64,000 bases of DNA, taken from contig CBFGIV010000002.1 in assembly GCA_965648915.1 (NCBI GenBank), positions 85,711 through 149,710 of the forward strand, read 5' to 3'. Made by a program: the position numbers and the translations under genes. Of this stretch, positions 19,015 through 63,149 are shown piece by piece. The notes beneath the pieces were generated by a model that saw only the letters and a program-made list of their open reading frames with translations, searched no databases and had not been told where the DNA came from. Each line of letters begins with the position of its first letter. The first letter of the stretch is position 1. Origin of the DNA: a candidate division WOR-3 bacterium. Its GTDB lineage: Bacteria; Hydrothermota; Tepidihabitantia; SM23-42; CAYGYG01.

Positions 19015-22000
19015 ATGAATTTAAATGAAGAGCGGCGATTAATAACGATTCTTTTTGCTGATCTATCGGGGTTCACCACTCTTGCCCAGCATCTTGATCC
19101 TGAAGAGGTCAGTGAGGTAATAAATATCTGCTTCGGTCATTTAAATCCGATAATCACACACCATGGGGGCGTAATTCATAAGTATGAAGGTGACCTGGTT
19201 ATCGCGCTATTTGGGTTACCGGTTACCCATGAAGACGATCCGGAACGTGCGGTCAGGGCGGCCATAGAGATGATGGCTTCTGTACCCGAGATAAATGCAT
19301 CGCTCCTTAATAGGTTGAGTATCCGGAGTAGTGTCGATCTCCATATCGGAATCAGCAGTGGAGTTGTTTTTGTGGGCGAAGTTGGCTCAAGGGAAAAACA
19401 CGAATACACCGTAATGGGTGAAGTGGTAAATCTGGCTTCGCGTCTCAAAGATACAGCAAAAGCTGGCGAGATCCTTATTGCAGAGACAATCTATCGGTTA
19501 ACCCATTATCTTATTGAAACTGTCCCCCTGCCGCCAGTTAAACTTAAGGGCATCGAGGGCGAAGTAAGAATTTTCAAAGTCCTGGGTTTGAAATCCGAGC
19601 CGGAACCGGAACGTGGCATAAGAGGACTATCTTCACCACTGGTTGGTCGGGACCGAGAGTTCGCCCTGCTTAAAACTGCGGTTGAACGTCTGACCCAAGG
19701 AAAGGGTGGTATAATTTTCATCATCGGCGACCCCGGAATCGGGAAATCACGTCTTTTTGAGGAAATAAGGAATTTCATTATTACTGAGGAGATACCAATC
19801 ACCATATTTGAAGGTCGTTGTCTTGCTTATGGTGAAAATCTTGCTTATCATCCGTTTTTGCCGGTTTTAAGAAAAATTACCGGTATTACTGAAAAAGACT
19901 CAGTCAGTGATATTCAGAATAAATTAATCAGATTTACCGCCGAACTCTTTCCGGATGATTATAAAAGTGTCGCGCCCTACATCGGTTATCTCTTTTCTAT
20001 CCGTTATGGTGACGAACTGGATGAAAAGGTTAAGTATTTAGACCCCAAGGGTTTAAGGTATCAGATCTTTTTGAGTATAAAGAGATTACTTTTTGCTCTG
20101 GCTCAGAGGCAACCACTCCTGTTGGTTATTGAAGATTATCACTGGATCGATACTGAATCTTTAGAACTGCTTGAATTCATATATGAGCAATCAATTTCGG
20201 CGCCGATGCTGATGTTCGCTTTATCGCGCTTTGTCAAAGAAAAGATCCCAGGGATAGTAAAAGAGCGGCTCCGCAAAAAACTCAGCGAAAATTTTACCGA
20301 AATAATTTTAAGACCACTCGATCGAGATGCCGGGGCCCAACTTCTTTACAATCTATTAAATTTTCCGGACATCAGTCCGGACCTGAAAAACCAGATATTG
20401 ATGAAGGCCGACGGTAATCCATACTTTGTCGAAGAAATAATTCGTTCTTTGATTGATACCAGTAAACTTAAATTCACATCCGGACGATGGAAGGCGATCG
20501 GAGACTTTACGACGATTACCATTCCCGACACGATTCAACTGTTACTTACATCACGAATTGACCAGCTGGATGATGATGTGAGAAACGTACTGCAACAGGC
20601 TTCAATAATTGGGAGAATTTTTGATGTCGAATTGTTAGAACTGGTAAATGGTGCAAATCATCTTATGCTCAGCCTTTATCTCGCAACCCTTGAGGAATTT
20701 GGATTTATAATGCGGGTACCGGGTGAGGGTGATCTGCGTTACCAGTTTCGTCACCCTCTCTTGTATGAGGTGGTCTACAATAGCATTTTGAAAAAAAACC
20801 GACGATCGTTACATCGGAAGGTAGGTGAATTGATCGAAAATATTCATAAAGAGCGACTGGATGATTGGGCGGAGGCGCTTGCCCATCAATATGGTCAGAG
20901 TGATAATTATGAAAGGGCAATGCACTGGCTGATGCGGGCAGGGTATAAAGCCAAGGGACGATATGCCAATGATGAGGCAATCAGTTTCTTCGAGAAACTG
21001 ATTGCAATAACAACAACCGTAACCAAGGTTGAAAAAGAAGTCCGGAGGCGGTATCGGGTTCAGGCCTCAGAAGCGCTAGGGGAGTTATATTTCTTAACCG
21101 GTAGGTATGATCAGGCAATCAAAAATTTTGAAATGATGCGCGACAATGCTCAGAGCGTTGGCGATCGAGCACGGGCCCAGCGACAGTTGGCTACGATTTA
21201 TCAGAATCAAGGACAGTATGATTTTGCTTTACAGTTACTCGATGAGATTGAAAAGTCGTTCACCGGTACGTCGCTATCTGAAATATTGGAACGAGTAGAA
21301 ATTATGATTCTAAGAGGCTGGATATACTGGGTGCGGGGGATGCTGGAACCGGCGCGGGCCGAGTGTGAAGAAGCTATCAATCTTTTAGGTAAACTTAACC
21401 CCGAGGAGCAACTGGTGAAGGCGCTTAAAGCAACAGCAATGAGTCGACTCGGATTAATTGCTCAAACAAAAGGAGAATATGAGAAGGCAATTGCATATAA
21501 TGAAGAGGATTTAAGACTCTCTCGAGAAATTGCCAATAAAAAAGGTATCAGCCGTGCCTGCTGTAATCTCGGTAGTATCTACAAAGAATTCGGTCAGTAT
21601 GATCGGGCGATTGAGTATTATGATGAAGACTTAAGAATATCAGAAGAGATCGGTGATAAACAGGGGATGGGGATAACGGCAAATAATTTAGGCACGATCT
21701 ATTTGATTAAAAAGGATTATGACCGGGCACAAGAACTTTTTCAAAAATACCTGATTATCTCTCAAGAGACTGGATATCTCCAGGGGATGGGCACGGCCAA
21801 GCTCAATCTCGGGTCGTTGGCCCTGCGGGTCTCCGAAATTGAAGATGCTGAGAAAAATTTGCTTGAAGCCGAAGCGATTCTTAAAGAAATCGGTTATCAT
21901 AGTGTCTTGATTACGGTCTACATTTTACTGGCCGAACTCTATCTGGTGCACCGAAAAGAGATGAAGAAGGCGTGGTCTTATCTCAATCGGGCCAGACAAT

Positions 22001-22266
22001 TGAACCGGCAAGTGGATTCAAAATCACAGTGGGCAAAGATATTTTTTGCTTATGGTAAGATGAATATGGAGCGAGGTGAGTGGTTAAAGGCGGGAAAGAA
22101 CTTTGACCGAGCAGTGGAGAGATTTCTTGAACTTGGTGAGTTGAAGTATGCGGCCGAGGTTTATGAGAAATATGCCGAGTTATTCCGATTGACAGGAGAT
22201 AGAGAGAGAAATAATTTATATTCCCAAAAGGCGAAAGATATCTACAAGAAGTTAGGAGTATCTTGA
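19015..22266 (+). CDS. Class III adenylate/guanylate cyclase domain + P-loop (STAND/AAA-like) NTPase + TPR-repeat protein
   Basis: N-terminus ITILFADLSGFTTL with metal-binding Asp, and VMGEVVNLASRL, are class III cyclase motifs; Walker A GDPGIGKS; C-terminal half has multiple TPR-like repeats. Confidence 0.8.
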   Translation: MNLNEERRLITILFADLSGFTTLAQHLDPEEVSEVINICFGHLNPIITHHGGVIHKYEGDLVIALFGLPVTHEDDPERAVRAAIEMMASVPEINASLLNRLSIRSSVDLHIGISSGVVFVGEVGSREKHEYTVMGEVVNLASRLKDTAKAGEILIAETIYRLTHYLIETVPLPPVKLKGIEGEVRIFKVLGLKSEPEPERGIRGLSSPLVGRDREFALLKTAVERLTQGKGGIIFIIGDPGIGKSRLFEEIRNFIITEEIPITIFEGRCLAYGENLAYHPFLPVLRKITGITEKDSVSDIQNKLIRFTAELFPDDYKSVAPYIGYLFSIRYGDELDEKVKYLDPKGLRYQIFLSIKRLLFALAQRQPLLLVIEDYHWIDTESLELLEFIYEQSISAPMLMFALSRFVKEKIPGIVKERLRKKLSENFTEIILRPLDRDAGAQLLYNLLNFPDISPDLKNQILMKADGNPYFVEEIIRSLIDTSKLKFTSGRWKAIGDFTTITIPDTIQLLLTSRIDQLDDDVRNVLQQASIIGRIFDVELLELVNGANHLMLSLYLATLEEFGFIMRVPGEGDLRYQFRHPLLYEVVYNSILKKNRRSLHRKVGELIENIHKERLDDWAEALAHQYGQSDNYERAMHWLMRAGYKAKGRYANDEAISFFEKLIAITTTVTKVEKEVRRRYRVQASEALGELYFLTGRYDQAIKNFEMMRDNAQSVGDRARAQRQLATIYQNQGQYDFALQLLDEIEKSFTGTSLSEILERVEIMILRGWIYWVRGMLEPARAECEEAINLLGKLNPEEQLVKALKATAMSRLGLIAQTKGEYEKAIAYNEEDLRLSREIANKKGISRACCNLGSIYKEFGQYDRAIEYYDEDLRISEEIGDKQGMGITANNLGTIYLIKKDYDRAQELFQKYLIISQETGYLQGMGTAKLNLGSLALRVSEIEDAEKNLLEAEAILKEIGYHSVLITVYILLAELYLVHRKEMKKAWSYLNRARQLNRQVDSKSQWAKIFFAYGKMNMERGEWLKAGKNFDRAVERFLELGELKYAAEVYEKYAELFRLTGDRERNNLYSQKAKDIYKKLGVS

Positions 22267-33875: not shown

Positions 33876-36800
33876 TTAAAGGTTTAACAAGAAGTTCAGA
33901 TTGTAAAACGCAATAAAGTTTTCCGGATCGAGGAGAAGGACTTTTTTGAACTCATTTGCTGCATCTTTTTTCTGTCCGAGGTTAGCGTAGACACCTCCCA
34001 GATTAATTCTGATATCGACTCTTAACGGATTTAGTATTAAAGCCTTCTTCAGATAAAAACTGGCTTTAAGGTTATTTTTTGTAGCTGCATAGATTGTGCC
34101 CAGTTTATATAATGCGTCGATATTAGATTCATTCAATTCAACCGAGCGAGTTAAAGATTTAATTGCTTTAGAAGTATCGCCCAGGATAAAGTGACAATAA
34201 CCAAGTTTCTCATAAATCGTTGAATTTAATGAGTCGATGGCAAGGCTCTGATAACATTCGGCGATTGCTTCGGAGTGAAGATTGTTTTCGATAAGGACAT
34301 TAATCAGATCGCAGCGATAATTGATATTGGTCGGTGCCAGCCTAATTGCCCTGTGGTATAGGTTAATGGCTTCATATCGCTTGTTCTGGAGTTCATATGT
34401 CTTGGCCAGCGCATAAACAATCTCGGCATTTTCAGGATCGAGGTTTAGTGCCCGGTTAAAATCCTCAAGTGCCAAAAAAATAAGATTGTTATTTCGGTAA
34501 ATTATACCCCGGCCGAGATATGCCTGGGCAAGTGTTGAATCTAATGCCAGAGCATTGTTAAATTCCATTTCTGCTTGATTGGTAATGCCTGCAAGTAGAA
34601 AATATTTCCCATCATAGTATCTAATAAGGGCACGCTGTTCTGGCAAAAGATTATCGAAGAGAGTCTTCTGATAACTCCGGATGTATTGATCGTTGAGCAG
34701 AGATGTTTCAGCATAAAGGCTCCGCGGCGCTGAAAACTCGAGGATAGGGAGATCATCAGAGTTGATCATTCCGTCTTTGACAAACTCCCGGACATCCTTA
34801 GAATTGAGAACCAGACAGCTGAGCAGGGAGTAAACATTTTCGATATTGACCGATTTTAAGTCTGCATAGATCCCGGGACGTTTTATTTTTTGATCAATCT
34901 GTTCAAGATTTAGATTGATCTCCTTAAAAGATCCAATAAGGAGGTAATCGGCCGTTCGTCCGGTAGACCAGATGGTAACATAAGGAAAGACAGATTGGAA
35001 AGTCTTTATAACCATCTGGAAGTCAGCCGGCGAAAGGCTGTAACCCTGAAGCCATTGACAGATCAATCCGTCCTTTTTCAATTTTCTTGCACAGATCTGG
35101 TAAAATTCTCTGGAAAATAGATTGGCGATACCAGCCATCCAGGGGTTGGACGGTTCGGTACTGATTACATCATACTTTTTAGGCGTGGCTAAAAGGTAGT
35201 TACGGCCATCCGCCGTTATGATCTTATCTCTTTGGTTATTAACGACATTATGATTCTCTTTATGAAAGAATTTTGCGCCTTCAATTACTGCCTCCTCAAT
35301 CTCAGCACATTCAACATTGGGTGCTCCGTAGTTCACACAGGCGCCCATAGTTACACCACTGCCCAGGCCTAAGATAAAAACATCCTTTGGATCGGGATGA
35401 AGGATCATCGGCAAATAACCACTTAGGACCTGAGTAATCATATCGCTTGCGCTACTGGCATCTGTTTTACCATTGATGTTTAGGGCGATGTGGTTTTCCG
35501 TTTTGATAACCGCCACATTGCAATTTATCCCTTCGCGATAATATAGTAATTTCCGGGACTGAAGGAATTCTTCCATAGTGATAACTTTCTGCATCGATAG
35601 ATATTTCCATGGACGAAACGAGATACCGGCATTCATAACCATCTTATTCCATTTCTTCCCCTGTATGATTAAAAGAAGGCCTATGATTACGACCATCCCA
35701 TTAAATATAAACTTTGCTCTTAATCGAAGTTGGTGACTAGTGAAGATAACAACAATTGCCACCAGGATGTTGAGTAGAACCGCTGTCTGGATTGCAGACT
35801 GAGCACCAATTAATGGTAACAGGAAAAAGCCGGTCAGGGCTGAGCCGATGATGCAGCCCAGTGTATTGATTGAATATGCCTGACCGATACGATTACCCAG
35901 TATATTTAAATCATCAACCAGGATTCTGGTGACGATCGGGAAGGAAGCACCAAAGAGCAGAGCGGGTATAATCATTACAAGAAAGCAGAGCAAAAATTGA
36001 ATGGCCTGGAGAAATCCATAATTGTTTGGAAAGAGTTGATAGAGCCTGACAAAATAGGTCGGCAGGCGGTCGAAGAGAGGCATTAGGAGGAGAACCGAAA
36101 TGCCGATGCCAGTTTCAATAAAACCAAAGAATTGATAGGGCACTCTTTTTTCGCCCCAGATCAATGAAAATAGCAAGCTGCCCGCGGCAATGCCGAAAAT
36201 AAATGCGACGAGCATGGTGCTGAAGGCGTAGATTGAACTGCCGATCGAAAGAGCCAGTGATCGGGTCCAGGCTACTTCGTAGACCATCGATGTGAAACCT
36301 GACAGACCAAAGCCTAAAAGGATTATCCACCCCGCATAGCTTATTTTTGATGGTTGCTTGGTGTCTAAGTCTCTTTCCTCCCTTTCCTTTTTAGTCAAGA
36401 GTATAAGGTGTTGGTCGAAGATAAAACATAAAGCTCCAATTCCGATATTCAAAACTGCAGCGATCAAGATCAAACGATGCACGCCCATTATCGGTAAGAG
36501 AAAATAGCCAGCCATTAAGATGCCAATGACTGCACCAAAGGTATTTATAGCATAGAGAAAACCAACAAGTTTACCAACGCTTTCAGCCCTTTTGATAAAG
36601 AATCTGGACATCAGCGGCAGGGTTCCACCCATCATGGTTGTTGGCGTGATGAGCAATATGAGACATAGAAAGAAAAGAAATATATTATAGGCAAAAGAGA
36701 ATTGCCAGTTTCGGGCAACACTCAAATATAGGGGTTGCACAATTTTAAATAAAAACGGAGTCACCAGAGCATATAATCCAGTGCCAATCTCTAATAGTGA

Positions 36801-37049
36801 ATAACCACGAAGTGGCCTTTTAATCCGATCGGCAATCTTACCAAATACCAGACTGCCTAAGGCGAGGCCGCCCATAAATGCAGAAAGGACAGTACTGGTG
36901 GCAAAGGCGGTCGAACCGAATATCAGGGTGAGCATCCTGGTCCAGAGTATCTCATAGATCAGGCCAGCGCAACCTGAGAAGAAGAAACAGATAAAGACGG
37001 CGATCAGTATCTGTTTTATTTCATCCTGGGTTTTCTTTTCTGAAGACAT
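33876..37049 (-). CDS. Fused MFS-like membrane domain / spermidine synthase-like (PABS) domain protein with C-terminal TPR repeats
   Basis: About 14 predicted TM helices in the N-terminal ~450 aa; then VFILGLGSGVTMGA SAM-binding-like motif and PABS-like body; C-terminus has about 6 TPR units. Confidence 0.6.
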   Translation of the reverse strand: MSSEKKTQDEIKQILIAVFICFFFSGCAGLIYEILWTRMLTLIFGSTAFATSTVLSAFMGGLALGSLVFGKIADRIKRPLRGYSLLEIGTGLYALVTPFLFKIVQPLYLSVARNWQFSFAYNIFLFFLCLILLITPTTMMGGTLPLMSRFFIKRAESVGKLVGFLYAINTFGAVIGILMAGYFLLPIMGVHRLILIAAVLNIGIGALCFIFDQHLILLTKKEREERDLDTKQPSKISYAGWIILLGFGLSGFTSMVYEVAWTRSLALSIGSSIYAFSTMLVAFIFGIAAGSLLFSLIWGEKRVPYQFFGFIETGIGISVLLLMPLFDRLPTYFVRLYQLFPNNYGFLQAIQFLLCFLVMIIPALLFGASFPIVTRILVDDLNILGNRIGQAYSINTLGCIIGSALTGFFLLPLIGAQSAIQTAVLLNILVAIVVIFTSHQLRLRAKFIFNGMVVIIGLLLIIQGKKWNKMVMNAGISFRPWKYLSMQKVITMEEFLQSRKLLYYREGINCNVAVIKTENHIALNINGKTDASSASDMITQVLSGYLPMILHPDPKDVFILGLGSGVTMGACVNYGAPNVECAEIEEAVIEGAKFFHKENHNVVNNQRDKIITADGRNYLLATPKKYDVISTEPSNPWMAGIANLFSREFYQICARKLKKDGLICQWLQGYSLSPADFQMVIKTFQSVFPYVTIWSTGRTADYLLIGSFKEINLNLEQIDQKIKRPGIYADLKSVNIENVYSLLSCLVLNSKDVREFVKDGMINSDDLPILEFSAPRSLYAETSLLNDQYIRSYQKTLFDNLLPEQRALIRYYDGKYFLLAGITNQAEMEFNNALALDSTLAQAYLGRGIIYRNNNLIFLALEDFNRALNLDPENAEIVYALAKTYELQNKRYEAINLYHRAIRLAPTNINYRCDLINVLIENNLHSEAIAECYQSLAIDSLNSTIYEKLGYCHFILGDTSKAIKSLTRSVELNESNIDALYKLGTIYAATKNNLKASFYLKKALILNPLRVDIRINLGGVYANLGQKKDAANEFKKVLLLDPENFIAFYNLNFLLNL

Positions 37050-52513: not shown

Positions 52514-54088
52514 TTGTTTATATCTATCTTGTTTCTCATCGGTATTGAAGTGAGTTCGAAAATTGACTCGGTCGTAGTCTATAGTAACCGGGTTCTTGTA
52601 TCGAGAATTGCCTATGTAAGTCTGGAAAAGAGTGCTGAGCTTGTCTTTACCAATTTACCCGGGACACTTGAGGATCAATCGGTCCGGATAAAAGCGGAAA
52701 ATCTGACTATCGGTGAAATTGAAATCAGGCGCGGTTATACAAAAGAACCCCATCCCCGGGTCAAAGACTTCCAGGCTAAAATCAAAGATCTGGAGAGTGA
52801 GGATCGTGGTCTAACTGACGAATATGCGGTGTTGAAAGAGTCCGAGAAGTTTCTCGGCTCGATTGCCACTGGTTCTGGTCAGACAATCATTAAAGAGATA
52901 AACACCGCTAAGATTTCACCTCAGTCCTGGCGTCAGGGTTTAAATTTTATTGTTGGTGAATGGGTTAAGGTAAAGACCAGGATGGCCGAGATTGAGCGAA
53001 GACAGATAGATCTGAAGGAGCGGCTTGAAGCTTTAAAAAGAGAATTGAATGACATCCGGGCAGATGTGGAACAACGCAAGACAATTATTTTTGATGTCTC
53101 GGTTAAAACTCCGGGTAATTACAAGATCGAACTCAACTATATTCTACCCGGTGCCCAATGGCGGACATATTATGAAATAAGAGGGCGGCCTTCGGAAAAA
53201 AAGATTGAGTTATTTTACTACGGCAAGATTGGGCAGAGGACAGGTGAAGACTGGGAAGATGTCAGGGTTGTTCTTTCTACGGGCGCGCCGGTAACTGGAG
53301 GGACAGCACCGATACCAGCACCCTGGTATATAGATTTGTATACACCTTACCGTGGTGGCCAGCTTGAAGAAAAAGCCGCTGCAAAAGCAGGTATACCACA
53401 ATTGTTACCACTCACACCGTCTGAGGTAAGCGAGGCACCGCCACCGGCTCCACCAGTCGAAGCCGGTATTGCCATCTGGTATCCTTTGCCGGGCAAATAC
53501 ACGATCAAGAGCGGTGATCAGGAACATAAAATGCTCATTGCCCAAACGTCTTTTGATGCCGATTTTGAATACTTTGCGATGCCGAGAATAGCCCAGTTGG
53601 CTTATCTCACGGGCAGAGCAAAGAACACGAGTGGTTATCTCTTTATTGCAGGTGAGGCGAGTACTTATGTTGGTGATGATTATACGGGCAAGATTTACCT
53701 ACCGAATATAGCACCGGATGAGTCGACTAAAGTTTCCGTGGGAATGGATGATCGGGTTAAAGTAACCCGGGAAACAAAAAAGATGAAGATTAAAAAGGGC
53801 GGGTTATTTGGGGGTAAGACCCGATACGAATTTACTTATGAGAACATCATTGAGAATTTTCACACCCGAGATATAACCTGTCAGATCGTCGATCAGACAC
53901 CAATTCCGAACAATCCCGATATTAATGTGGGTGATATTAAGATCGAACCCCGGCCAACCGAAGAGGATAAAGACCGCAGCCTTTACTACTGGCAGGTGCC
54001 GATCCAGGCGAAGGGGAGATACAGAATAACTGTCTCTTTTACGGTTGAGGCACCCGGTGATCGAGAGATCCGGGGATTGTTGCCATAG
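52514..54088 (+). CDS. DUF4140/DUF4139-family (MuiA-like, TIGR02231-like) protein, paralog 1
   Basis: N-terminal SVVVYSNRVLVSRIA block; central coiled-coil; C-terminal beta-rich region; signal-like N-terminus. Confidence 0.55.
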   Translation: MFISILFLIGIEVSSKIDSVVVYSNRVLVSRIAYVSLEKSAELVFTNLPGTLEDQSVRIKAENLTIGEIEIRRGYTKEPHPRVKDFQAKIKDLESEDRGLTDEYAVLKESEKFLGSIATGSGQTIIKEINTAKISPQSWRQGLNFIVGEWVKVKTRMAEIERRQIDLKERLEALKRELNDIRADVEQRKTIIFDVSVKTPGNYKIELNYILPGAQWRTYYEIRGRPSEKKIELFYYGKIGQRTGEDWEDVRVVLSTGAPVTGGTAPIPAPWYIDLYTPYRGGQLEEKAAAKAGIPQLLPLTPSEVSEAPPPAPPVEAGIAIWYPLPGKYTIKSGDQEHKMLIAQTSFDADFEYFAMPRIAQLAYLTGRAKNTSGYLFIAGEASTYVGDDYTGKIYLPNIAPDESTKVSVGMDDRVKVTRETKKMKIKKGGLFGGKTRYEFTYENIIENFHTRDITCQIVDQTPIPNNPDINVGDIKIEPRPTEEDKDRSLYYWQVPIQAKGRYRITVSFTVEAPGDREIRGLLP

Positions 54089-54131
54089 TTGAGAACTTGA
54101 TCGACAAAAATTATTGAATAAAGGAGATGAG

Positions 54132-55703
54132 ATGGTAGTGGATAAATTTGAAGTAACCGGCATCGAAGTAAATTCGAAAGTGGATTCGGTTGTTGTCTAT
54201 TCAGACCGGGTCCTGGTCACCAGGATTGCTGAGATTTCCATAGAGAAGGGAACCAATATTGTCTTTACTGACCTACCCGGAGCAATTGATGACCAATCGG
54301 TCAGAGTAAAAGCTAAGGATCTGACAATTGGCGAGATTCAGATAAAGACCGGCTATGTACTGAAACCGATCCCGAGGGTGAAAGAACTCCAGGATAAGAT
54401 TAAAACCTTGGAGATTGAGGATCGTAGTCTTAATGACGAACTTGCTGTTCTATCAGATAAAGAAAAATTCCTGAATTCCCTGATTACCGGTTCAGCCAAT
54501 ATTATCTTAAAAGAGATAAATACAGCAAAAGTTGCGCCTGAGACCTGGCAACAGGGAATCAGATTTGTGGCTGATGAACTTATGAGTTCAAAAAAAAGGA
54601 AGGTAGAGATTGAACTGGAAAGGCAGAACTTGAAAGAAAAAATCGATGCCCTGCGCCAGGAATTTAGTGATGTTCGGTCAATAGCGGAAAACCGGAAGGT
54701 GATTTTCTTCGAAGTCCAGCCCAGGAAACCTGGAAAATATTCAATCGAGCTCAGTTATATTATATATGGGGCAAACTGGTGGACCTATTATGATCTACGC
54801 GCCAATCCGGTTGATAAAAAAGTTGAGATCGCTTACTTTGGCAAATTAACTCAGAATACTGGCGAAGACTGGATTGATACCAAGATAACCCTATCCACCG
54901 GCCATCCTGCCACTGGCGGAGCACCACCTTCTCCCGAACCCTGGTACATAAATCTTTACCGACCTCCACCCCAGGAAATAGAAACAGCCTATCGGGGAAA
55001 AAGAGAGATGCCCTCGGCTTCAAAGGCGGCGGAAGATAAACTGGCACCCCCTGTGCTTGAGCCGGCACCACCGGTTGAGACCGGTCTGGCCATCTGGTAT
55101 CCTTTGCCCGGCAAATATACGATCAAGAGTGGTGATCAGGAGAGGAAGATTCTTATCCATCAATCAACCCTTGATGGCGAATATGAATATCTTATCATAC
55201 CGAGGTTCACCCTGCAGGCGTATTTGATGGCAAAGGTTAAGAATACGACCGGTTACCTCTATCTGGCTGGAGAAGCAGGTACTTATGTCGGTGATGATTT
55301 TACCGGCAAAGTATATTTCCCGAAAGTCGCTCCCGATGATACAGTGGATATAACTTTTGGTCTCGATGACCGCGTAAAGGTAAAAAGAGAGACTAGGAAG
55401 ATGAAGATCACCAAGAGCGGTATTTTAGGATCAAAAAACAGATACGAATTTGTCTACGAAAATATTGTTGAAAATTTTCATAATAGCGAAATAAGATGTA
55501 AAATTGTTGATCAGATCCCGATTGCCGGTGATCCCGACATTAAGGTGAGCGATGTGAAATTAAATCCCAAACCATCTGAGGAAGATAAAGATCGAGCGCT
55601 ATATAACTGGCAGATAACACTCCCGGCTAAAGATAAATTCACGATGACCCTGGCCTTTACTGTTGAATGGCCGGCGGAAAGAGAGCTGACCGGATTGATA
55701 TAA
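54132..55703 (+). CDS. DUF4140/DUF4139-family protein, paralog 2 (~50% identical to paralog 1)
   Basis: Shares many blocks with the upstream gene, e.g. GIAIWYPLPGKYTIKSGDQE / GLAIWYPLPGKYTIKSGDQE; AAGGAG SD before ATG 54132. Confidence 0.55.
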   Translation: MVVDKFEVTGIEVNSKVDSVVVYSDRVLVTRIAEISIEKGTNIVFTDLPGAIDDQSVRVKAKDLTIGEIQIKTGYVLKPIPRVKELQDKIKTLEIEDRSLNDELAVLSDKEKFLNSLITGSANIILKEINTAKVAPETWQQGIRFVADELMSSKKRKVEIELERQNLKEKIDALRQEFSDVRSIAENRKVIFFEVQPRKPGKYSIELSYIIYGANWWTYYDLRANPVDKKVEIAYFGKLTQNTGEDWIDTKITLSTGHPATGGAPPSPEPWYINLYRPPPQEIETAYRGKREMPSASKAAEDKLAPPVLEPAPPVETGLAIWYPLPGKYTIKSGDQERKILIHQSTLDGEYEYLIIPRFTLQAYLMAKVKNTTGYLYLAGEAGTYVGDDFTGKVYFPKVAPDDTVDITFGLDDRVKVKRETRKMKITKSGILGSKNRYEFVYENIVENFHNSEIRCKIVDQIPIAGDPDIKVSDVKLNPKPSEEDKDRALYNWQITLPAKDKFTMTLAFTVEWPAERELTGLI

Positions 55704-55746: not shown

Positions 55747-55774
55747 TTGACAATTATCGGATTTAAGATAAAAT
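55747..55774 (+). promoter_or_regulatory. Sigma-70-type promoter (TTGACA-N16-TAAAAT)
   Basis: TTGACA 55747-55752, TAAAAT 55769-55774. Confidence 0.5.
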
Positions 55775-55834
55775 TGATGTATTGGTTACCACATTCATCA
55801 CTTTGGTCCCTGTCTTTTCTATCAGTTTTTAATT

Positions 55835-56119
55835 ATGGAATTGAGAGATTATCAAGATTTGATTAAAGCAATCTATTTTGACAAAGATTCCCGAAGGGGG
55901 CTGTCCAAGACTTTTAACTGGCTGATTGAAGAGATCGGCGAACTGGCCCGGGCAATAAGAAAGGGTGATAAAAAGGCAGTCGATGAAGAGATCGCCGATA
56001 CTCTGGCCTGGCTCTTGAGTGTGGCTTCAATTTTGAAAGTGGATGTTGAAGAGTCAATGAAAAAATATAAGGACGGTTGCCCCAAGTGTCATAAGAGGCC
56101 TTGCCGATGTAAAGAATAA
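55835..56119 (+). CDS. MazG-like nucleotide pyrophosphohydrolase domain protein with a C-terminal Cys4 zinc-ribbon tail
   Basis: EEIGELARAIRKGD and EEIADTLAWL form the MazG EExxE/ExxD helix pair; tail GCPKCHKRPCRC. Confidence 0.55.
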   Translation: MELRDYQDLIKAIYFDKDSRRGLSKTFNWLIEEIGELARAIRKGDKKAVDEEIADTLAWLLSVASILKVDVEESMKKYKDGCPKCHKRPCRCKE

Positions 56120-56139
56120 GAAGATTATAAGGAGGTATT

Positions 56140-57258
56140 ATGCTGGAACTTAGCCTGATTTTTTTTATCACAACCCTTTCCCCTCCGACCGATGTCAGGG
56201 TATGTGATGCGCCGAATGATGCGGGTGGTGCGGTTATTATTATGTGGAAACTATCATCTGATGATCAAGATCTAAGTGCTTATCGGATTGAACGGGCTGA
56301 ATCCGGTAAGGAGTTCATCGATATCGGTTTTGTGCCTCGAGGTATCAATCGATACATCGATTCCAAGACCGATGACCGCCTGCAATATGTCTACCGGATT
56401 GTTGCCTTAAAAGATACAGCGAGAGCGGTCTCTGAGATCTCTAATCCGATCCAGAGCAAGGGGCAGTGGTTTCATACGGGTAGAGTGAATGTCATTATCG
56501 GTATTATTATCTTTGGCAGTCTGATTTTCTGGTTTGTCAATCATGCCCGAAAAGGTAGAGAACTCTTCATAAGGCGTATTGCCGGACTTGATGCAGTAGA
56601 GGAGGCAGTGGGTCGGGCGACAGAGATGGGTAAGGCGATTCTCTATGTCCCGGGCCTCTCTTCGGTCGGCGATGTCGCAACCATCGCTTCACTCAATATC
56701 CTCGGTGAGGTGGCACGTAAGGCGGCTCAGTATGAGACAACCCTGCTCGTTCCCAATCGTGATCCCATTGTCTATACAGTTGCCCAGGCCGTGGTTAAAG
56801 AAGCCTACACCAAGGAAGGGAGGCCTGATGCCTATCGAGATGAAAATGTCTTCTTTATTACAGATAGTCAATTCGCTTATGCCGCAGCGGTCGATGGTAT
56901 TATGGTCCGGGAGAAACCGGCGACAAATTTCTTTCTCGGTATGTTCTGGGCCGAATCACTCATTCTGGCTGAGACCGGGGCAACAACCGGTGCAATTCAG
57001 ATTGCGGGTACCGATTCGGTCTATCAGTTACCTTTCTTTATAACTGCCTGTGACTACACTCTGATCGGTGAAGAGTTATATGCGGCTTCTGCTTATCTCT
57101 CCCGAGAACCGACCCTGCTCGCCTCTTTGAAGGCTCAAGATTATGGTAAATTAATTATTATTGCATTGATCATTTTCGGCTCGGCGCTTCTTCTGGTGAG
57201 TGTCTTTCCTGGTTTAAGTTTTTTTAAGGGAATTATGAATTTCTTTTCGGTCAGTTAG
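56140..57258 (+). CDS. Uncharacterised membrane protein: N-terminal FN3-like domain, TM helix, ~230-aa soluble domain, C-terminal TM helix
   Basis: FN3-like [12 protein letters not shown]...[10 protein letters not shown]; TM segment [14 protein letters not shown]; AAGGAGG SD. Confidence 0.45.
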
Positions 57259-57271
57259 GGAGGTTGAAAAT

Positions 57272-57892
57272 ATGCAGCGACGTATTCCTATGGCAATCTG
57301 TCTGATTATGGGGCTCTTTATGATTATCCAGTATATGATCCCCCATAATGTTTCCAAACTCGCCTATGAGGAGATGCTGGACTGGGATCGAATCATTGTG
57401 GCATTTGCCCTCATTCTCTCAACCGGCAGTCTGGTAACCCATCATCTAACCAAGATCAAACGTAAGAAACAGGACTGGTATTTCAGTTTTGTAACCCTCA
57501 TCGGTTTGGTTGCAACTGCTTTCATTGGTTTGATCTGGGGAATCAAGGCGGGCACACCACTCCATATTATCTATATCAACATTATTGTCCCGCTCGGTTC
57601 ATCGATGTTTGCCATCCTTGCCTTCTATATGGCTTCAGCCGCCTATCGAGCCTTTCGGGCGCGTAATAAAGAAGCGACACTCTTACTGGTCGCTGCTTTT
57701 GTTGTTATGTTGGGTATGGTGCCGATAGGCTCTTTCATCTGGACAAAATTACCCGATGTTGCCCAGTGGATTCTCAATTTTCCGAACCTTGCCGCCAAAA
57801 GGGCAATCTTTTTCGGTGTCGCCTTAGGTATGATCTCGACCTCGATCAAGATTATCTTCGGTATTGAACGCGGTTGGATAGGAGGCAAGTAA
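57272..57892 (+). CDS. Uncharacterised polytopic membrane protein (~5 TM)
   Basis: Hydrophobicity pattern; GGAGG SD. Confidence 0.45.
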
Positions 57893-57893
57893 T

Positions 57894-58736
57894 ATGAAAT
57901 GGCTTAACTGGCTCTTCAGGATTGATCGTCGGATTGTCTTTCTTATCTTAGCAGTTGTTGTCATACTTCCCTTGCTGGTGCCGTTAAATCTTGGTGTTAC
58001 CATTTCACCTCCGGTTAAAAATCTCTTTGATGAGATCGATAGGATCCCGGCCAATAGCAAACCGCTGATGATCTCGGTTGACTTTGACCCCAATTCGATG
58101 CCCGAACTCTACCCGATGTATCTGGCGATTCTCCGCCATGCCTTTGCCCGGGATGTCAGGGTGATTATTCTCGGTCTCTGGCTAACCGGTATAAGTATCG
58201 GTGAAGAGGGTTTAAGTGAGGTCTCGAGAGATTTTAATAAGGTTTACGGTAAGGATTATGTCTTCCTCGGATGGCAGGCGGGCGTTGCCGCGGTAATCCT
58301 CGGTATGGGCGAAAATATCAAAAGGGTCTTCCCCAACGATTACTATAATCGACCCTTAGACTCTTTGCCCCTGATGCGGGAAGTCAGGAATTATTCTGAT
58401 ATTCCTCTATTTATCTCGCTCTCGGCTGGTGACCCTGGTTATCGAACCTGGATCACTTATGCAGGAGCAAGTTATGGGCTCAAGATTGGAACCGGGGTTA
58501 CGGCGGTTTCTGGTGCTGATGCCTATCCTTATCTTCAAACCGGTCAACTGGTTGGTCTCCTGGCCGGGATGAAGGGTGGGGCTGAATATGAAAACTTGAT
58601 CGAAAAAGCGGGGTATTATAAAGGTAAAAAACCGGCGACGCAGGCGATGGATTCTCAGTCCCTTGCTCATCTTGCCATAATGGTTCTGGTAATCTTAGGG
58701 AATATTGGTTTCTTCATCGGACGGAGGCAGAAATGA
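57894..58736 (+). CDS. Uncharacterised membrane protein (N- and C-terminal TM helices flanking a ~200-aa domain)
   Basis: Start 2 nt after the upstream stop; GGAGG upstream. Confidence 0.45.
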   Translation: MKWLNWLFRIDRRIVFLILAVVVILPLLVPLNLGVTISPPVKNLFDEIDRIPANSKPLMISVDFDPNSMPELYPMYLAILRHAFARDVRVIILGLWLTGISIGEEGLSEVSRDFNKVYGKDYVFLGWQAGVAAVILGMGENIKRVFPNDYYNRPLDSLPLMREVRNYSDIPLFISLSAGDPGYRTWITYAGASYGLKIGTGVTAVSGADAYPYLQTGQLVGLLAGMKGGAEYENLIEKAGYYKGKKPATQAMDSQSLAHLAIMVLVILGNIGFFIGRRQK

Positions 58737-59365
58737 CAACCGATATCTGGATCTGGATCAGTGCCCTTTTGACGCTCTGCATCTTTTCTTTCCTTTATAA
58801 GGATAACCCCTTCTATAAATTTGCTGAACACCTCTTTGTCGGTGTATCTCTTGGATATAGTATTGCCATTACCTACCATAATGCAGTCTATCCGAAACTT
58901 ATTATCCCGCTCTTCATAAACTTCAGTCCGGGTAACCTTCGGTTGATTATCCCGTTTGCACTGGGCATTATGTATCTTACCAGGTTTATTCCTAAACTCT
59001 CCTGGATGTTCAAACTGCCGATTGCCTTCCTCTTGGGTCTATTCTCAGGAGCAGCAATCCCCCGTGAGTTTCAGGCAAATATAATTCGACAGATCCAGGG
59101 CAGTCTTCTGACGCCAGAGATATTCGGCCGGATTGATAACGCAATCTTCACAATTATCGTCTTTATCGGCATAATCTGTTCTTTAATCTACTTCTTCTTT
59201 TCGCGAGAACGGAAAGGGATTATAAAACCAGCAGCAGATCTCGGTATTATCTTTCTGATGGTTGGGTTCGGCGCTTCTTTTGGTTATACCGTAATGGCCC
59301 GGGTGAGTCTGCTTATTGGACGAATTCAATTTCTCCTGGGTCAGTGGTTGGGGTTGATAAAGTAA
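58733..59365 (+). CDS. Uncharacterised polytopic membrane protein (~6 TM)
   Basis: ATGA overlap with the upstream gene. Confidence 0.45.
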   Translation: MTTDIWIWISALLTLCIFSFLYKDNPFYKFAEHLFVGVSLGYSIAITYHNAVYPKLIIPLFINFSPGNLRLIIPFALGIMYLTRFIPKLSWMFKLPIAFLLGLFSGAAIPREFQANIIRQIQGSLLTPEIFGRIDNAIFTIIVFIGIICSLIYFFFSRERKGIIKPAADLGIIFLMVGFGASFGYTVMARVSLLIGRIQFLLGQWLGLIK

Positions 59366-59398: not shown

Positions 59399-59827
59399 CT
59401 ACTGAGGAATTTTCTCTTCAACAAATTTAATTATCTTTTCTCTAATTTCGAGGTCTGCGGGAAAATAGAGGAAGATACCCCGGAAATTATTTAAAAAAGT
59501 TGGTTTAGAGAAGGGGCTTAAAAGCACACCGTTTTTACCAACATAATTTTTTCGAAATTCATTCCAGTGACGAACAGTGGTGAAAGATAGTTTTTTGATA
59601 ACGATTTGATCGTTCTCGAGGCGATAATGGGTTGGGAAGAAATACGAATTGAGGGTGGCGAGGAGAAATAAAATTCCAAAAAATACCCAGTAGATTCCAT
59701 AGAAGATTAAGATTATGACCAGAAAGAAGATGATGATTGCTAAAGCCAGGATGGTTTTCCTCAAAGAATCCCGGGCCGGGAAGAAAGTCCAGGAAAGAGT
59801 CTCACTGGTTGATGTCTCGTTGTCCAT
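59399..59827 (-). CDS. Small hypothetical membrane protein
   Basis: Two TM helices (ILALAIIIFFLVIILIFYGIYWVFFGILFLLATL); convergent with the membrane operon. Confidence 0.35.
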   Translation of the reverse strand: MDNETSTSETLSWTFFPARDSLRKTILALAIIIFFLVIILIFYGIYWVFFGILFLLATLNSYFFPTHYRLENDQIVIKKLSFTTVRHWNEFRKNYVGKNGVLLSPFSKPTFLNNFRGIFLYFPADLEIREKIIKFVEEKIPQ

Positions 59828-60072: not shown

Positions 60073-60633
60073 ATGAAGAGATTAATATTACTATTTCCAC
60101 TTTTTCTCCTTTTTTTATCCTTCTGCAATAAGGAAGATAATCAAGAAGAACCACCCTCTCCTCCACCACCGGCCAAGAATGCAGTAGACCTTCTGCCCAA
60201 AGATAACGAGATCAGCGGCTGGACCAAGAGTGGACAGTTGAGAACCGCGAGCACCCCTGATGAGTTGACGGCAATTATTAATGGTGAGGCCGTGCCTTAC
60301 ATAAATAATAACTTCAAAGAGGCGGTCTTTCAGAATTATCAGGGGATAATCGGTGGGAATAATGTGACCCTGGAAGTGAGGATATTTGATATGCGGGATA
60401 CTATTAATGCCCGGAAGGTTTATAAGGATGTTGCCAATGGTCAGGAGACGCCCTGGGTAAATAATCATCCGGGAGTAGAGGCGAGGATTGATGAATCCGG
60501 ACTGTTCAGTTACGCAATCGACTTCTGGGAAGATAAATTTTTTGTTCGCACCGTGATTCAAGAGAAGAGTAGTGCCTCCTTAGATATCGCTAAGACATTT
60601 TCGTTGAATATATCGGCGGCAATTAAAGAATAG
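60073..60633 (+). CDS. Hypothetical lipoprotein
   Basis: Signal peptide with lipobox LSFC; Pro-rich linker. Confidence 0.45.
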   Translation: MKRLILLFPLFLLFLSFCNKEDNQEEPPSPPPPAKNAVDLLPKDNEISGWTKSGQLRTASTPDELTAIINGEAVPYINNNFKEAVFQNYQGIIGGNNVTLEVRIFDMRDTINARKVYKDVANGQETPWVNNHPGVEARIDESGLFSYAIDFWEDKFFVRTVIQEKSSASLDIAKTFSLNISAAIKE

Positions 60634-60635
60634 CG

Positions 60636-61562
60636 ATGATAGATAGAATTTCCCGTCGCGACTTCATAAAAAAAGCACTTGCAATTTCTTTTGCCTCTTC
60701 CATCTTGCCCAAGGATTTTTTACTCTATGCCCAAGAGGATATTCCTCCTGATCTGGTTGTGGCCAGAGGGGAGAAGGTTCAGGCCCTGAGAAAAGGACTC
60801 GAAGCCTTTGGAGGCATCGGCCGATTTGTTAAGGCCCAGGACCGGGTCCTGCTTAAACCCAATATCTCTTTTGCCAGCCCACCGTCCTGGGGTGCGACGA
60901 CCAGCCCGGAAATAATAGTCGAGGTAGCAAGGGCATGCTTAGAAGCCGGGGCAAGACGGGTTATTATTGCTGATTACCCATTGCGTTCGCCCCAGGTTTG
61001 TTTTGAGAAATGTGGTCTCAAAAAGGCAATTGCTGAACTGAAAGAGGTCGATGTCTTACTCCTGACCCAGGAGAGATTTTTTGTTGAGACCGAAATTAAA
61101 AATGGAGTAGTCCTTAAGTCAACTAAGATTGCCCGGGAGATTTCAAAGGCTGATGTGATAATTAACATCCCGACTGCTAAGTCTCACTCCGCAACTGGTG
61201 TGAGTATGGGATTGAAGGGTTTAATGGGATTGATCTGGGATCGGGCGTCATTTCATCAAAAGGTTGATCTCAATCAGGCAATTGCCGATCTGGCAACAAT
61301 CATCAGGCCCCATCTTACCATTATGGATGCATCAAGGGCCTTGACCTCAGGTGGTCCCGGTGGACCAGGTGTTGTGAAAACGTTGAATACAGTGGTAGTT
61401 GGGACTGATCCGGTTGCGGTCGATTCCTATACGGTCGGTCTGACGAAATGGTATAACAAAGTCTTCCTCGGTAAGAATGTCAAACACATCGCCCTGGCGG
61501 CAAAAATGGGTCTGGGTGAGATCGACCCAACAAAGGTCAAGATCAAAGAGATAGAAGTTTAG
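60636..61562 (+). CDS. DUF362-domain protein with twin-arginine (Tat) signal
   Basis: SRRDFIKKALA Tat motif; DUF362-like body. Confidence 0.65.
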   Translation: MIDRISRRDFIKKALAISFASSILPKDFLLYAQEDIPPDLVVARGEKVQALRKGLEAFGGIGRFVKAQDRVLLKPNISFASPPSWGATTSPEIIVEVARACLEAGARRVIIADYPLRSPQVCFEKCGLKKAIAELKEVDVLLLTQERFFVETEIKNGVVLKSTKIAREISKADVIINIPTAKSHSATGVSMGLKGLMGLIWDRASFHQKVDLNQAIADLATIIRPHLTIMDASRALTSGGPGGPGVVKTLNTVVVGTDPVAVDSYTVGLTKWYNKVFLGKNVKHIALAAKMGLGEIDPTKVKIKEIEV

Positions 61563-61664
61563 TAGTAACGTCGCGGTTAGAGAGGCCGGGTTTATCAGAG
61601 GATCAGGCTACCGGGTTATAGGGGTGTCAGGTTCTGATCGTTTTTTGGTGCATTATCCTTTAAT

Positions 61665-63149
61665 ATGACTTGGCTCAGGTATATCAGGGTCGCAGCGCAG
61701 ATTATCTTTTTGGGGCTATTTATATACTTCTTCCTTGTAACAGCGACAGTTACCCGTTCCATCTTTATCAATCCGTTTTTTTCGGCTGACCCATTGATAT
61801 TTACGATCAATTCGATCGCCACCCGAATTATGCTGTCCATTGGTTTACCGTTGATGTTGATTATTTTATCCCTGATATTCGGCCGATTCTTTTGTGGTTT
61901 TATATGCCCGCTCGGGATCTTAATCGATTGGTCGGGTTCATTTATAGGGAGGCATAAGCCGAGAAAGGGTGATGATAGAAAGATTAAGTATTATATCCTG
62001 CTCACGATCTTTATCTCGGCAATACTGGGAGGCTCTTTGGTTTATATCTTTGACCCGCTGGTAATTGTGGGGCGAAGTTTTACTACTGTTCTCAGGTTGA
62101 TAGTTTCTGTTTTCCAAGACAATGCGCTTCTGCACAATGGATTCTTATTTCTGGGCATCCTCTTGATAATCCTTGGTCTGAACCTGATCCGGAAGAGATT
62201 CTGGTGCCAGAGTCTATGCCCGCTCGGTGCATTATTTGCCCTCATCAGTCGCTGGTCGATATTAAGGTTCACCTTTAAGAAAAGTTGTAACGAGTGCCAT
62301 CGGTGTCGATATATCTGTCCGACCGGCGCCATCTCTGTTGAATTAAGAGCAGTATCTCAATTGGAATGCGTCCGGTGCCTGAGATGCCTTGAAGCGTGCA
62401 GGGAATCAGGGATTTCGCTTGCCTTTGCTTTGCCGGCCACTCCGCCACAATCGCTCAATCTATCACGTCGGGGTCTTATCACTTCAATCGGTCTGGGCAT
62501 AATCACTATCCCTTTATTAAAGACCGAAATATTTAAAAAGATCAATCCGAACCGAGTTATTCGTCCACCGGGTTCAATACCGGAAGAGTTATTTATCGAT
62601 GCCTGTATTCGTTGTGGTGAATGTGTTAAAATATGTCCGACCAATGGTTTACAACCGGTTCTCCTGCAGCGAGGGTTTGGAGGATTATTCACGCCTCAAC
62701 TTATACCAAGGATTGGTGGTTGTGAGAGGAACTGTAATGGTTGTGGTCAGGTCTGTCCGACCGGCGCCATCCGGAAGTTAGAACTCAAAGAGAAAGATTT
62801 TGTAAAGATCGGTACAGCAGTAATTCACAAGGAGATGTGCCTTGCCTGGGAGCAGGATAAATTATGTCTAATCTGTGATGAGGCCTGCCCTTATAATGCG
62901 ATCGAATCGAAAATGGTTGATATTTTGGGAAATAAATTGTTAAGACCCTTTGTTAAAGAAGAACTGTGCACTGGCTGTGGTATTTGCGAGTCGAGGTGTC
63001 CAATCACCGGACCTTCGGCAATTGAGGTCTTCCCGATCGGTGAAGAACGGCTATTGACCGGCTCTTATATTAACGAGCAGAAGATAAGATTAAGGGAATT
63101 ACTCGGACAGGAGTCTGAAGAAGATATTCCTACTGGATTTATGGAATGA
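61665..63149 (+). CDS. Membrane-bound polyferredoxin (NapH/MauN/NosR-C-like), 4Fe-4S clusters
   Basis: N-terminal TM helices with CGFICPLG and CQSLCPLG; four CxxCxxCxxxCP ferredoxin motifs. Confidence 0.75.
   Translation: MTWLRYIRVAAQIIFLGLFIYFFLVTATVTRSIFINPFFSADPLIFTINSIATRIMLSIGLPLMLIILSLIFGRFFCGFICPLGILIDWSGSFIGRHKPRKGDDRKIKYYILLTIFISAILGGSLVYIFDPLVIVGRSFTTVLRLIVSVFQDNALLHNGFLFLGILLIILGLNLIRKRFWCQSLCPLGALFALISRWSILRFTFKKSCNECHRCRYICPTGAISVELRAVSQLECVRCLRCLEACRESGISLAFALPATPPQSLNLSRRGLITSIGLGIITIPLLKTEIFKKINPNRVIRPPGSIPEELFIDACIRCGECVKICPTNGLQPVLLQRGFGGLFTPQLIPRIGGCERNCNGCGQVCPTGAIRKLELKEKDFVKIGTAVIHKEMCLAWEQDKLCLICDEACPYNAIESKMVDILGNKLLRPFVKEELCTGCGICESRCPITGPSAIEVFPIGEERLLTGSYINEQKIRLRELLGQESEEDIPTGFME

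Follow-up and report, generated by a model that had tools for sequence, protein, structure and literature searches.

What does a MazG-type protein do at the head of a tight run of membrane-protein genes? The question is raised by five same-strand open reading frames (ORFs) that span positions 55835–59365 (+) of a 64,000-nt stretch of DNA from a candidate division WOR-3 bacterium (contig CBFGIV010000002.1; hereafter the window). The original prediction, made from the sequence of the window, took all five genes to be one undescribed system. Our analysis bears out that the arrangement is undescribed, conserved, and tightly coupled, with the qualification that its core consists of four genes and that one domain within it already carries a DUF label. 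On present evidence from Pfam, NCBIfam, PADLOC, and PDB searches, we rate this cassette of four membrane-protein genes as lying outside every known kind of system.

A conserved four-gene membrane module

The five ORFs, designated g1 to g5, were recovered with the predicted intervening gaps of 20, 13, 1, and −4 nt. The gene for the MazG-domain protein, g1 (55835–56119), is followed by g2 (56140–57258), g3 (57272–57892), g4 (57894–58736), and g5 (58733–59365), with the start of g5 overlapping the stop of g4 by 4 nt. Because every one of them has hundreds to thousands of homologues at 40–85% identity, we regard all five as real genes and not chance ORFs. As predicted, each membrane-protein gene has its own strong Shine–Dalgarno sequence (AAGGAGG for g2, AGGGAGG for g3, TAGGAGG for g4, and GGAGG for g5).

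We then compared 114 non-redundant loci around relatives of g2, drawn from 32 genome loci, 80 metagenome loci, and a few found by exact look-up, where the metagenome scan with an alignment query covered relatives at ≥50% identity only. These loci, referred to by L numbers below, contain 132 copies of g2, and 99 of these have the ≥2.3 kb of downstream sequence needed for evaluation. In 91 of the 99, g3, g4, and g5 follow in that order. Spacing is also tight, with median gaps over 72 cassettes of 10.5 nt (g2–g3), −4 nt (g3–g4), and −4 nt (g4–g5). The same cassette is found in WOR-3, TA06, Latescibacterota, Stahlbacteria, Fermentibacteria, and Hydrothermus genomes as well as on many metagenome contigs, such that the synteny extends far beyond a single genome.

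Nine of the 114 loci contain two or three complete cassettes in tandem (L019, L020, L074, L076, L087, L089, L090, L101, and L107), and in these, all four subunits have diverged together (38–80% identity), with g4 usually having diverged the most. Tandem g2–g5 cassettes are likewise observed at L116–L118, and extra solo copies of g2 lie next to cassettes at L019, L021, L076, L084, and L101. The fixed order, the small gaps, and the duplication of whole cassettes uphold the prediction that the four membrane-protein genes are one unit: g2–g5 is a conserved, co-inherited, and co-duplicating four-gene module of integral membrane proteins. A defense-system, plasmid, or phage origin was considered and rejected, as g1–g5 gave no PADLOC match at E ≤ 0.001 and the cassette had no match in the plasmid (PLSDB) and phage collections.

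The FN3–DUF6754 subunit

The g2 product (372 aa) is a bitopic protein that is composed of a short N-terminal hydrophobic leader, a periplasmic fibronectin type III (FN3) domain, a first transmembrane helix (TM1), a cytoplasmic DUF6754 domain, and a second transmembrane helix (TM2). This topology was derived from hydropathy and positive-inside counts, and homologues with canonical signal peptides indicate that the N-terminal part lies outside. The predicted layout of an extracytoplasmic FN3-like fold and a further domain bounded by two transmembrane (TM) helices therefore stands, whereas the central domain, which had been taken as unrecognized, is already known to Pfam as DUF6754 (PF20539). Residues 107–354 (56458–57201, by the Pfam coordinates, which take in TM1 and the start of TM2) match this family with an E-value of 1.9e-121 and 404.5 bits against a gathering cut-off of 27, covering model positions 2–249 of 257. 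The extracytoplasmic N-terminal domain (residues ~16–107; 56185–56460) has the seven-strand β-sandwich fold of fibronectin type III. Although g2 is thus a member of DUF6754 over nearly the entire model, the Pfam entry describes a domain of unknown function and is silent on partners. Our literature search found no paper naming DUF6754 or PF20539, and the link to three further membrane proteins is in no paper found. Literature searches on MazG with a zinc ribbon and on WOR-3 likewise returned nothing relevant. In PDB sequence searches, neither the single g2 sequence nor the DUF6754 profile gave a match.

DUF6754 has approximately 60 invariant residues, including the motifs GRATE, GRPD, AE...ETG, CDY, and GEEL. 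Its predicted secondary structure consists of helices alternating with short strands, followed by moderately hydrophobic helices that carry the invariant acidic residues of AE...ETG, CDY, and GEEL. We considered the segment GRATEMGK as a possible P-loop and rejected it, since the spacing is Gx5GK, the lysine varies between K and R, and no S/T follows. There are more than 8000 homologues of g2; the best 120 listed share 59–80% identity with it, and those with an organism name are from WOR-3, TA06, Latescibacteria, and Stahlbacteria.

In a whole-library profile search, DUF6754 was always C-terminal, in proteins ranging from 300 to 1341 aa. By contrast, what precedes it varies widely: nothing at all, several FN3 domains, HEAT repeats, or ~1000 aa without a Pfam match. 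In eight aligned representatives that lack FN3, the DUF6754 domain is nonetheless 51–56% identical to that of the window. Among the long members are P0303 (1341 aa), P0339 (1272 aa), and P0308 (1146 aa); one of the three has HEAT repeats at ~843–927, while the others have no Pfam domain within ~900–1000 aa.

The remaining membrane subunits

The other three subunits were predicted to be polytopic or bitopic, and hydropathy agrees. The g3 product (206 aa) is polytopic with ~6 TM helices and both termini inside, and the g5 product (210 aa) is likewise polytopic with ~6 TM helices. Within alignments of orthologues, the invariant residues of g3 are H58, R126, R129, P171-N172, R177, and E199-R200 (alignment A1), and those of g5 are N25-P26, E32-H33, Q120, the motifs YFxFS and GFGAxFG, R190, and R197 (alignment A3). 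The g4 product (280 aa) is bitopic. Its structure model is good (pLDDT 81.7, pTM 0.80) and consists of an N-terminal TM helix, a parallel α/β, Rossmann-like domain (residues ~42–250), and a C-terminal TM helix, where positive-inside counts place the α/β domain in the periplasm. There are at least 1768 homologues of g4, and the protein itself is identical to one recorded from a candidate division WOR-3 metagenome-assembled genome (locus tag ABIL05_04625).

None of g3, g4, and g5 matches a family in Pfam, NCBIfam, PADLOC, or the PDB. Profile searches of PDB sequences gave zero matches for g3 and g5 and chance-level matches only for g4 (E ≥ 0.39), and a Foldseek comparison of the g4 fold to the PDB returned nothing at E ≤ 0.001. 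Weak Pfam matches across 28–31 orthologues of each protein point to no consistent family. The best of these, 7TMR-DISM_7TM for g3 (14 of 31 sequences, E ≥ 0.006), was rejected and ascribed to hydrophobic composition. With hhalign on the orthologue alignments, we also rejected paralogy between g2 and g4 or between g3 and g5, as well as internal repeats within g3 or g5 (probability ≤2% in each case). The prediction that the membrane proteins belong to no recognized transporter, secretion, or respiratory family thus agrees with the Pfam, NCBIfam, PADLOC, PDB sequence, and PDB fold searches, and only two family memberships hold for the locus: that of g1 in the MazG domain family and that of g2 in DUF6754 with an FN3 domain.

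A lineage-restricted MazG neighbor

The prediction that g1 encodes a 94-aa MazG-like domain ending in a Cys4 knuckle is well borne out. The protein matches Pfam MazG (PF03819) with an E-value of 1.4e-12 (48.1 bits; gathering cut-off of 22) and falls far under the cut-offs of the NCBIfam full-length MazG models, as expected for one short domain. By sequence, it would be of the all-α nucleoside triphosphate (NTP) pyrophosphohydrolase type. Both acidic motifs, E32-E33-I-G-E36 and E51-E52-I-A-D55 (EExxE and EExxD), and the C-terminal zinc knuckle C82-P-K-C85-x4-C90-x-C92 (CPxC...PCxC; 56078–56110, +) are kept in 19 of 19 aligned orthologues. The MazG domain and the EExxE/EExxD motifs are shared with small, single-domain MazG-type NTP pyrophosphohydrolases; unlike these enzymes, g1 has the conserved Cys4 knuckle and, in WOR-3, precedes a membrane-protein cassette.

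This association is recurrent within a limited range of lineages. Of the 106 g2 copies with enough upstream flank, 31 are preceded by a MazG zinc-knuckle gene, and the loci concerned are of the WOR-3 and Stahlbacteria types only. No MazG gene is found upstream in TA06, Hydrothermus, Fermentibacteria, UBP2-type, or distant Latescibacterota loci. Correspondingly, the 352 homologues of g1 are annotated almost all as WOR-3. When six MazG homologues were looked up directly, four preceded DUF6754 cassettes with just a 23S_rRNA_IVP gene intervening in each case, and three of these four loci continue with a second full cassette, the other with a 705-aa DUF6754 gene. The two more distant homologues have the same architecture and unrelated neighbor genes. 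The intervening small gene (PF05635, four-helix bundle) was observed in several WOR-3 genomes (L116, 7379–7774; L117, 7345–7731; L118, 7355–7780; L119, 6317–6760; also L051 and L055), and its insertion means that the tight MazG–g2 spacing of the window is lost there.

At the window locus, g1 is probably co-transcribed with g2–g5, which is made plausible by the 20-nt gap to g2 and the position of a candidate promoter. This σ70-like site, TTGACA-N16-TAAAAT (55747–55774, +), had been predicted and matches 11 of 12 consensus positions in a pattern search; it sits in the 131-nt gap between the upstream gene and g1 and is one of three 11/12 sites in the 4.6 kb scanned, each of them intergenic. No Shine–Dalgarno sequence was found upstream of g1, and no convincing terminator was found after g5, the end of which is separated by 33 nt from a convergent gene.

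A true five-gene unit, in which MazG pyrophosphohydrolase activity is mechanistically coupled to the membrane complex, for instance by docking on DUF6754, would draw on this short gap, on the sole strong promoter-like site being upstream of g1, on the persistence of MazG with the same Cys4 tail beside WOR-3 and Stahlbacteria cassettes despite differing flanks, and on the four of six look-ups that meet cassettes. We nevertheless consider such coupling very unlikely. There is no MazG upstream of 75 of the 106 g2 copies, including all those of the TA06, distant Latescibacterota, Fermentibacteria, and Hydrothermus-type loci; an unrelated gene separates MazG from g2 in several WOR-3 genomes; homologues of the same architecture adjoin unrelated genes; and g1 has no Shine–Dalgarno sequence and is not translationally coupled. 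With MazG upstream of fewer than a third of g2 copies and two of six homologues elsewhere in the genome, the original view of MazG as a constant member fails, and the conserved system is therefore one of four genes. MazG is a recurrent, lineage-restricted accessory neighbor and not a core subunit, and to judge from its sequence, g1 would most simply be a house-cleaning NTP pyrophosphatase or a regulator.

Genes next to the cassette

Several of the genes that adjoin the cassette encode envelope proteins. A Wzi-like outer-membrane protein (PF14052, E-values of 1e-11 to 5e-18) is encoded directly downstream of 17 of 74 cassettes, and five TA06-type loci have a Wza-like SLBB/Poly_export gene immediately before the cassette. 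In approximately 10 WOR-3 loci, a gene for a secreted 547-aa protein lies upstream, followed in six by that for a Big_5 lipoprotein. All of these genes share the strand of the cassette. Three Stahlbacteria-type loci have a phosphoglucomutase/phosphomannomutase (PGM/PMM) gene downstream, and one more locus has such a gene close to the cassette. Beyond these genes, the flanks vary, with no ATPase, glycosyltransferase, or flippase gene as a constant neighbor, and no ATPase gene occurs within the cassette in any locus examined.

Neither a Wza-like nor a Wzi-like gene is present in the window. Directly upstream of g1 are tandem paralogues with TTG starts at 52514–54088 (524 aa, +) and 54114–55703 (529 aa, +), which combine DUF4140 and DUF4139 and match the NCBIfam mucoidy inhibitor MuiA family (TIGR02231, 1.9e-88). 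A DUF4139-family sequence is also upstream of the cassette in the nearest relative, L001 (562–2100, and a partial sequence at 1–237), and in no other locus. In the WOR-3 loci with the pair mentioned above, the secreted 547-aa protein has no Pfam match and the Big_5 Ig-like lipoprotein is ~410 aa, both being encoded upstream of MazG (L047, 4684–7571; also L001, L052, L082, L090, L113, and L116–L119); the window lacks this pair, and the DUF4139 pair holds its position. The convergent gene downstream of g5 (59399–59827, −) encodes a 142-aa protein with two adjacent hydrophobic helices and has a σ70-like site of its own (TTGACA-N16-TATATT, 11/12; 59977–59948, −). Homologues of this protein are present in L001, L094, and L107 and are not consistently next to the cassette.

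Possible functions of the module

Three known systems loosely resemble the cassette in layout. Like the polysaccharide co-polymerases (Wzc/KpsE) of capsule and exopolysaccharide export, g4 spans the inner membrane twice and has its periplasmic domain between the two TM helices, and in some lineages, the cassette is flanked by same-strand Wza-like or Wzi-like genes. However, g4 has no sequence or fold similarity to Wzz/Wzc, the Wzz-type periplasmic domain (PF02706 fold) is absent from it, and no glycosyltransferase, flippase, polymerase, kinase, or ABC ATPase gene is adjacent. The combination of an ABC-2 permease with a GldG-type auxiliary protein similarly pairs permease-sized, ~6-TM subunits with a two-anchor periplasmic α/β protein, but neither the window cassette nor any other locus examined includes a nucleotide-binding subunit, and neither ABC2_membrane nor ABC_transp_aux gave a Pfam match in g2–g5 or in the 28–31 orthologues of each of g3, g4, and g5. 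Finally, the Rnf/Nqr complexes (RnfA/E and RnfG) share with the cassette a tight operon encoding two ~200-aa, 6-TM subunits and a bitopic periplasmic subunit. Here, the cassette differs in having neither conserved cofactor ligands nor cytoplasmic FeS/NADH subunits, g3 and g5 are not detectably related, and Rnf-Nqr (PF02508) and FMN_bind are without a match in the cassette proteins (Pfam and NCBIfam) or the orthologues of g3–g5 (Pfam).

The reading we favor, with a probability of roughly 45%, is that g2–g5 encode a new four-subunit inner-membrane complex without an ATPase that probably handles an envelope component. That the four products form one complex, which the original prediction took to be stoichiometric, is inferred from gene organization. 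In such a complex, g3 and g5, each with ~6 TM helices, would make up the membrane core, while the DUF6754 domain of g2, strongly constrained and with many invariant acidic and small residues, would lie in the cytoplasm or close to the membrane. The periplasmic module of g2, which differs between homologues, would be exposed, and g4 would project its Rossmann-like domain into the periplasm between its two TM anchors. The extra copies of g2 and its variable ectodomains suggest that g2 sets specificity. The weakest steps are those on energy and cargo. Most likely, the complex would draw on an ion gradient or on binding energy, where ion-gradient coupling is favored by the lack of an ATPase and the abundance of invariant carboxylates and histidines. 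It would most likely export, assemble, or anchor a surface polymer or an outer-membrane-directed cargo. This role is favored by its periplasmic modules and by the recurrence of genes for outer-membrane and secreted envelope proteins next to the cassette in several lineages; in the window, such neighbors would be the two MuiA-family proteins. Our confidence in this mechanistic layer is weak.

Several observations weigh against this reading. Eight of the 99 evaluable g2 copies have no g3–g5 directly downstream; five of the eight are extra copies adjoining a full cassette, while three (L080, L081, and L110) are isolated within a downstream flank of ~6.5–8 kb. No energy-coupling element was found in the cassette, and the AlphaFold2 model of DUF6754 is unreliable, with pLDDT <50 at residues 140–165 and 249–330. 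Envelope-related neighbors occur in a minority of loci, glycosyltransferase, flippase, and polymerase genes are not adjacent in the loci examined, and housekeeping neighbors recur, namely PurF (8 loci), GreA, SucCD, and an EF-G-like gene. There may also be distant kinship to a known family, given that the searches were of Pfam, NCBIfam, PADLOC, and PDB sequences and folds.

Some of the same features could be accommodated by a new secondary (ion-coupled) transporter of small solutes, with g3 and g5 as the permease, g4 as a tethered binding domain, and g2 in a regulatory or gating role, in which case the tandem cassettes would serve different substrates. The conserved charged residues in the two ~6-TM subunits and the lack of an ATPase are consistent with this, diverged tandem cassettes are typical of transporter paralogy, the periplasmic g4 is the fastest-diverging subunit, and the neighbors include PurF, PGM/PMM, and a nucleotide pyrophosphatase/phosphodiesterase. 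We consider a transporter unlikely, as g4 is a single Rossmann-like lobe without similarity to solved substrate-binding proteins, neither an internal repeat nor g3–g5 kinship is detectable, a solute transporter would not usually have an extracytoplasmic part as variable, and at times as large, as that of g2, and the extreme conservation of DUF6754 would be left unexplained.

That conservation, which at 51–56% identity in the FN3-less representatives is very high for membrane proteins, is one point in favor of a new ion-translocating pump or stator. Here, ions would pass along the invariant DUF6754 carboxylates and through g3 and g5, and the complex would be coupled to the envelope by its periplasmic domains. 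Invariant E/D residues in the moderately hydrophobic segments of g2, the invariant E32-H33 of g5 and E199-R200 of g3, the missing ATPase, and the Rnf/Nqr-like layout all point in this direction. With no conserved cofactor-binding motif, no match to Rnf/Nqr, MotA/ExbB/TolQ, or respiratory families, and two or three paralogous copies per genome, which is unusual for a core bioenergetic complex, we regard a pump or stator as distinctly unlikely. The least probable alternative is a transmembrane signaling or receptor complex, in which g2 would detect a ligand or surface contact through its variable outside domain, with DUF6754 on the cytoplasmic side as its output. A receptor is suggested by the way in which the invariant inside domain follows an N-terminal module that varies and lies outside, and by the solo g2 copies adjoining cassettes, but no signaling output (kinase, cyclase, or HTH) is fused or conserved nearby, three more dedicated membrane subunits are atypical of sensors, and sensor domains are rarely so conserved.

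Returning to the inner-membrane envelope complex, a bolder version, which we offer tentatively and think somewhat unlikely, is that of an unrecognized class of ion-gradient-driven, ATPase-less inner-membrane machines found specifically in WOR-3, TA06, Latescibacterota, Fermentibacteria, and uncultured phyla related to them. Its ion- or substrate-conducting core would be a new one, made up of DUF6754 and two unrelated 6-TM subunits, swappable g2 modules and paralogous cassettes would fit it to different envelope cargos, and MazG would act as a regulator in WOR-3.

Other genes of the window

Elsewhere in the window, positions 60073–63149 (+) encode a DUF6599 protein (186 aa), a DUF362 protein (308 aa), and a 494-aa membrane polyferredoxin with many 4Fe-4S motifs; L001 also has DUF6599 and DUF362 genes. 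Positions 11294–15052 (+) encode a C25 (gingipain-like) peptidase of 1252 aa, which has a propeptide as well as a FlgD_ig domain at its C-terminus. As Por_Secre_tail domains, which are sorting domains of the type IX secretion system (T9SS), occur in proteins encoded near the cassettes of L033, L082, and L119, the host organisms probably have this secretion system. Two further large proteins are a 1083-aa adenylate/guanylate cyclase domain protein with AAA_16 and TPR repeats (19015–22266, +) and a 1057-aa fusion of MFS-like, spermine-synthase-like, and TPR parts (33876–37049, −).

Significance

Across several uncultured phyla, this four-gene membrane module has hardly changed and is often present more than once per genome, and yet g3, g4, and g5 fall in no named family and g2 bears a DUF label only. 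Membrane proteins that are so well conserved are usually core machinery. From its sequence and gene context, the module is probably an unstudied cell-envelope machine, and it offers a concrete four-protein set for joint modeling or co-expression. Solving it could uncover a new kind of envelope or membrane-energy machine and would give a role to thousands of proteins that metagenomes from sediments, hot springs, and groundwater list as hypothetical.

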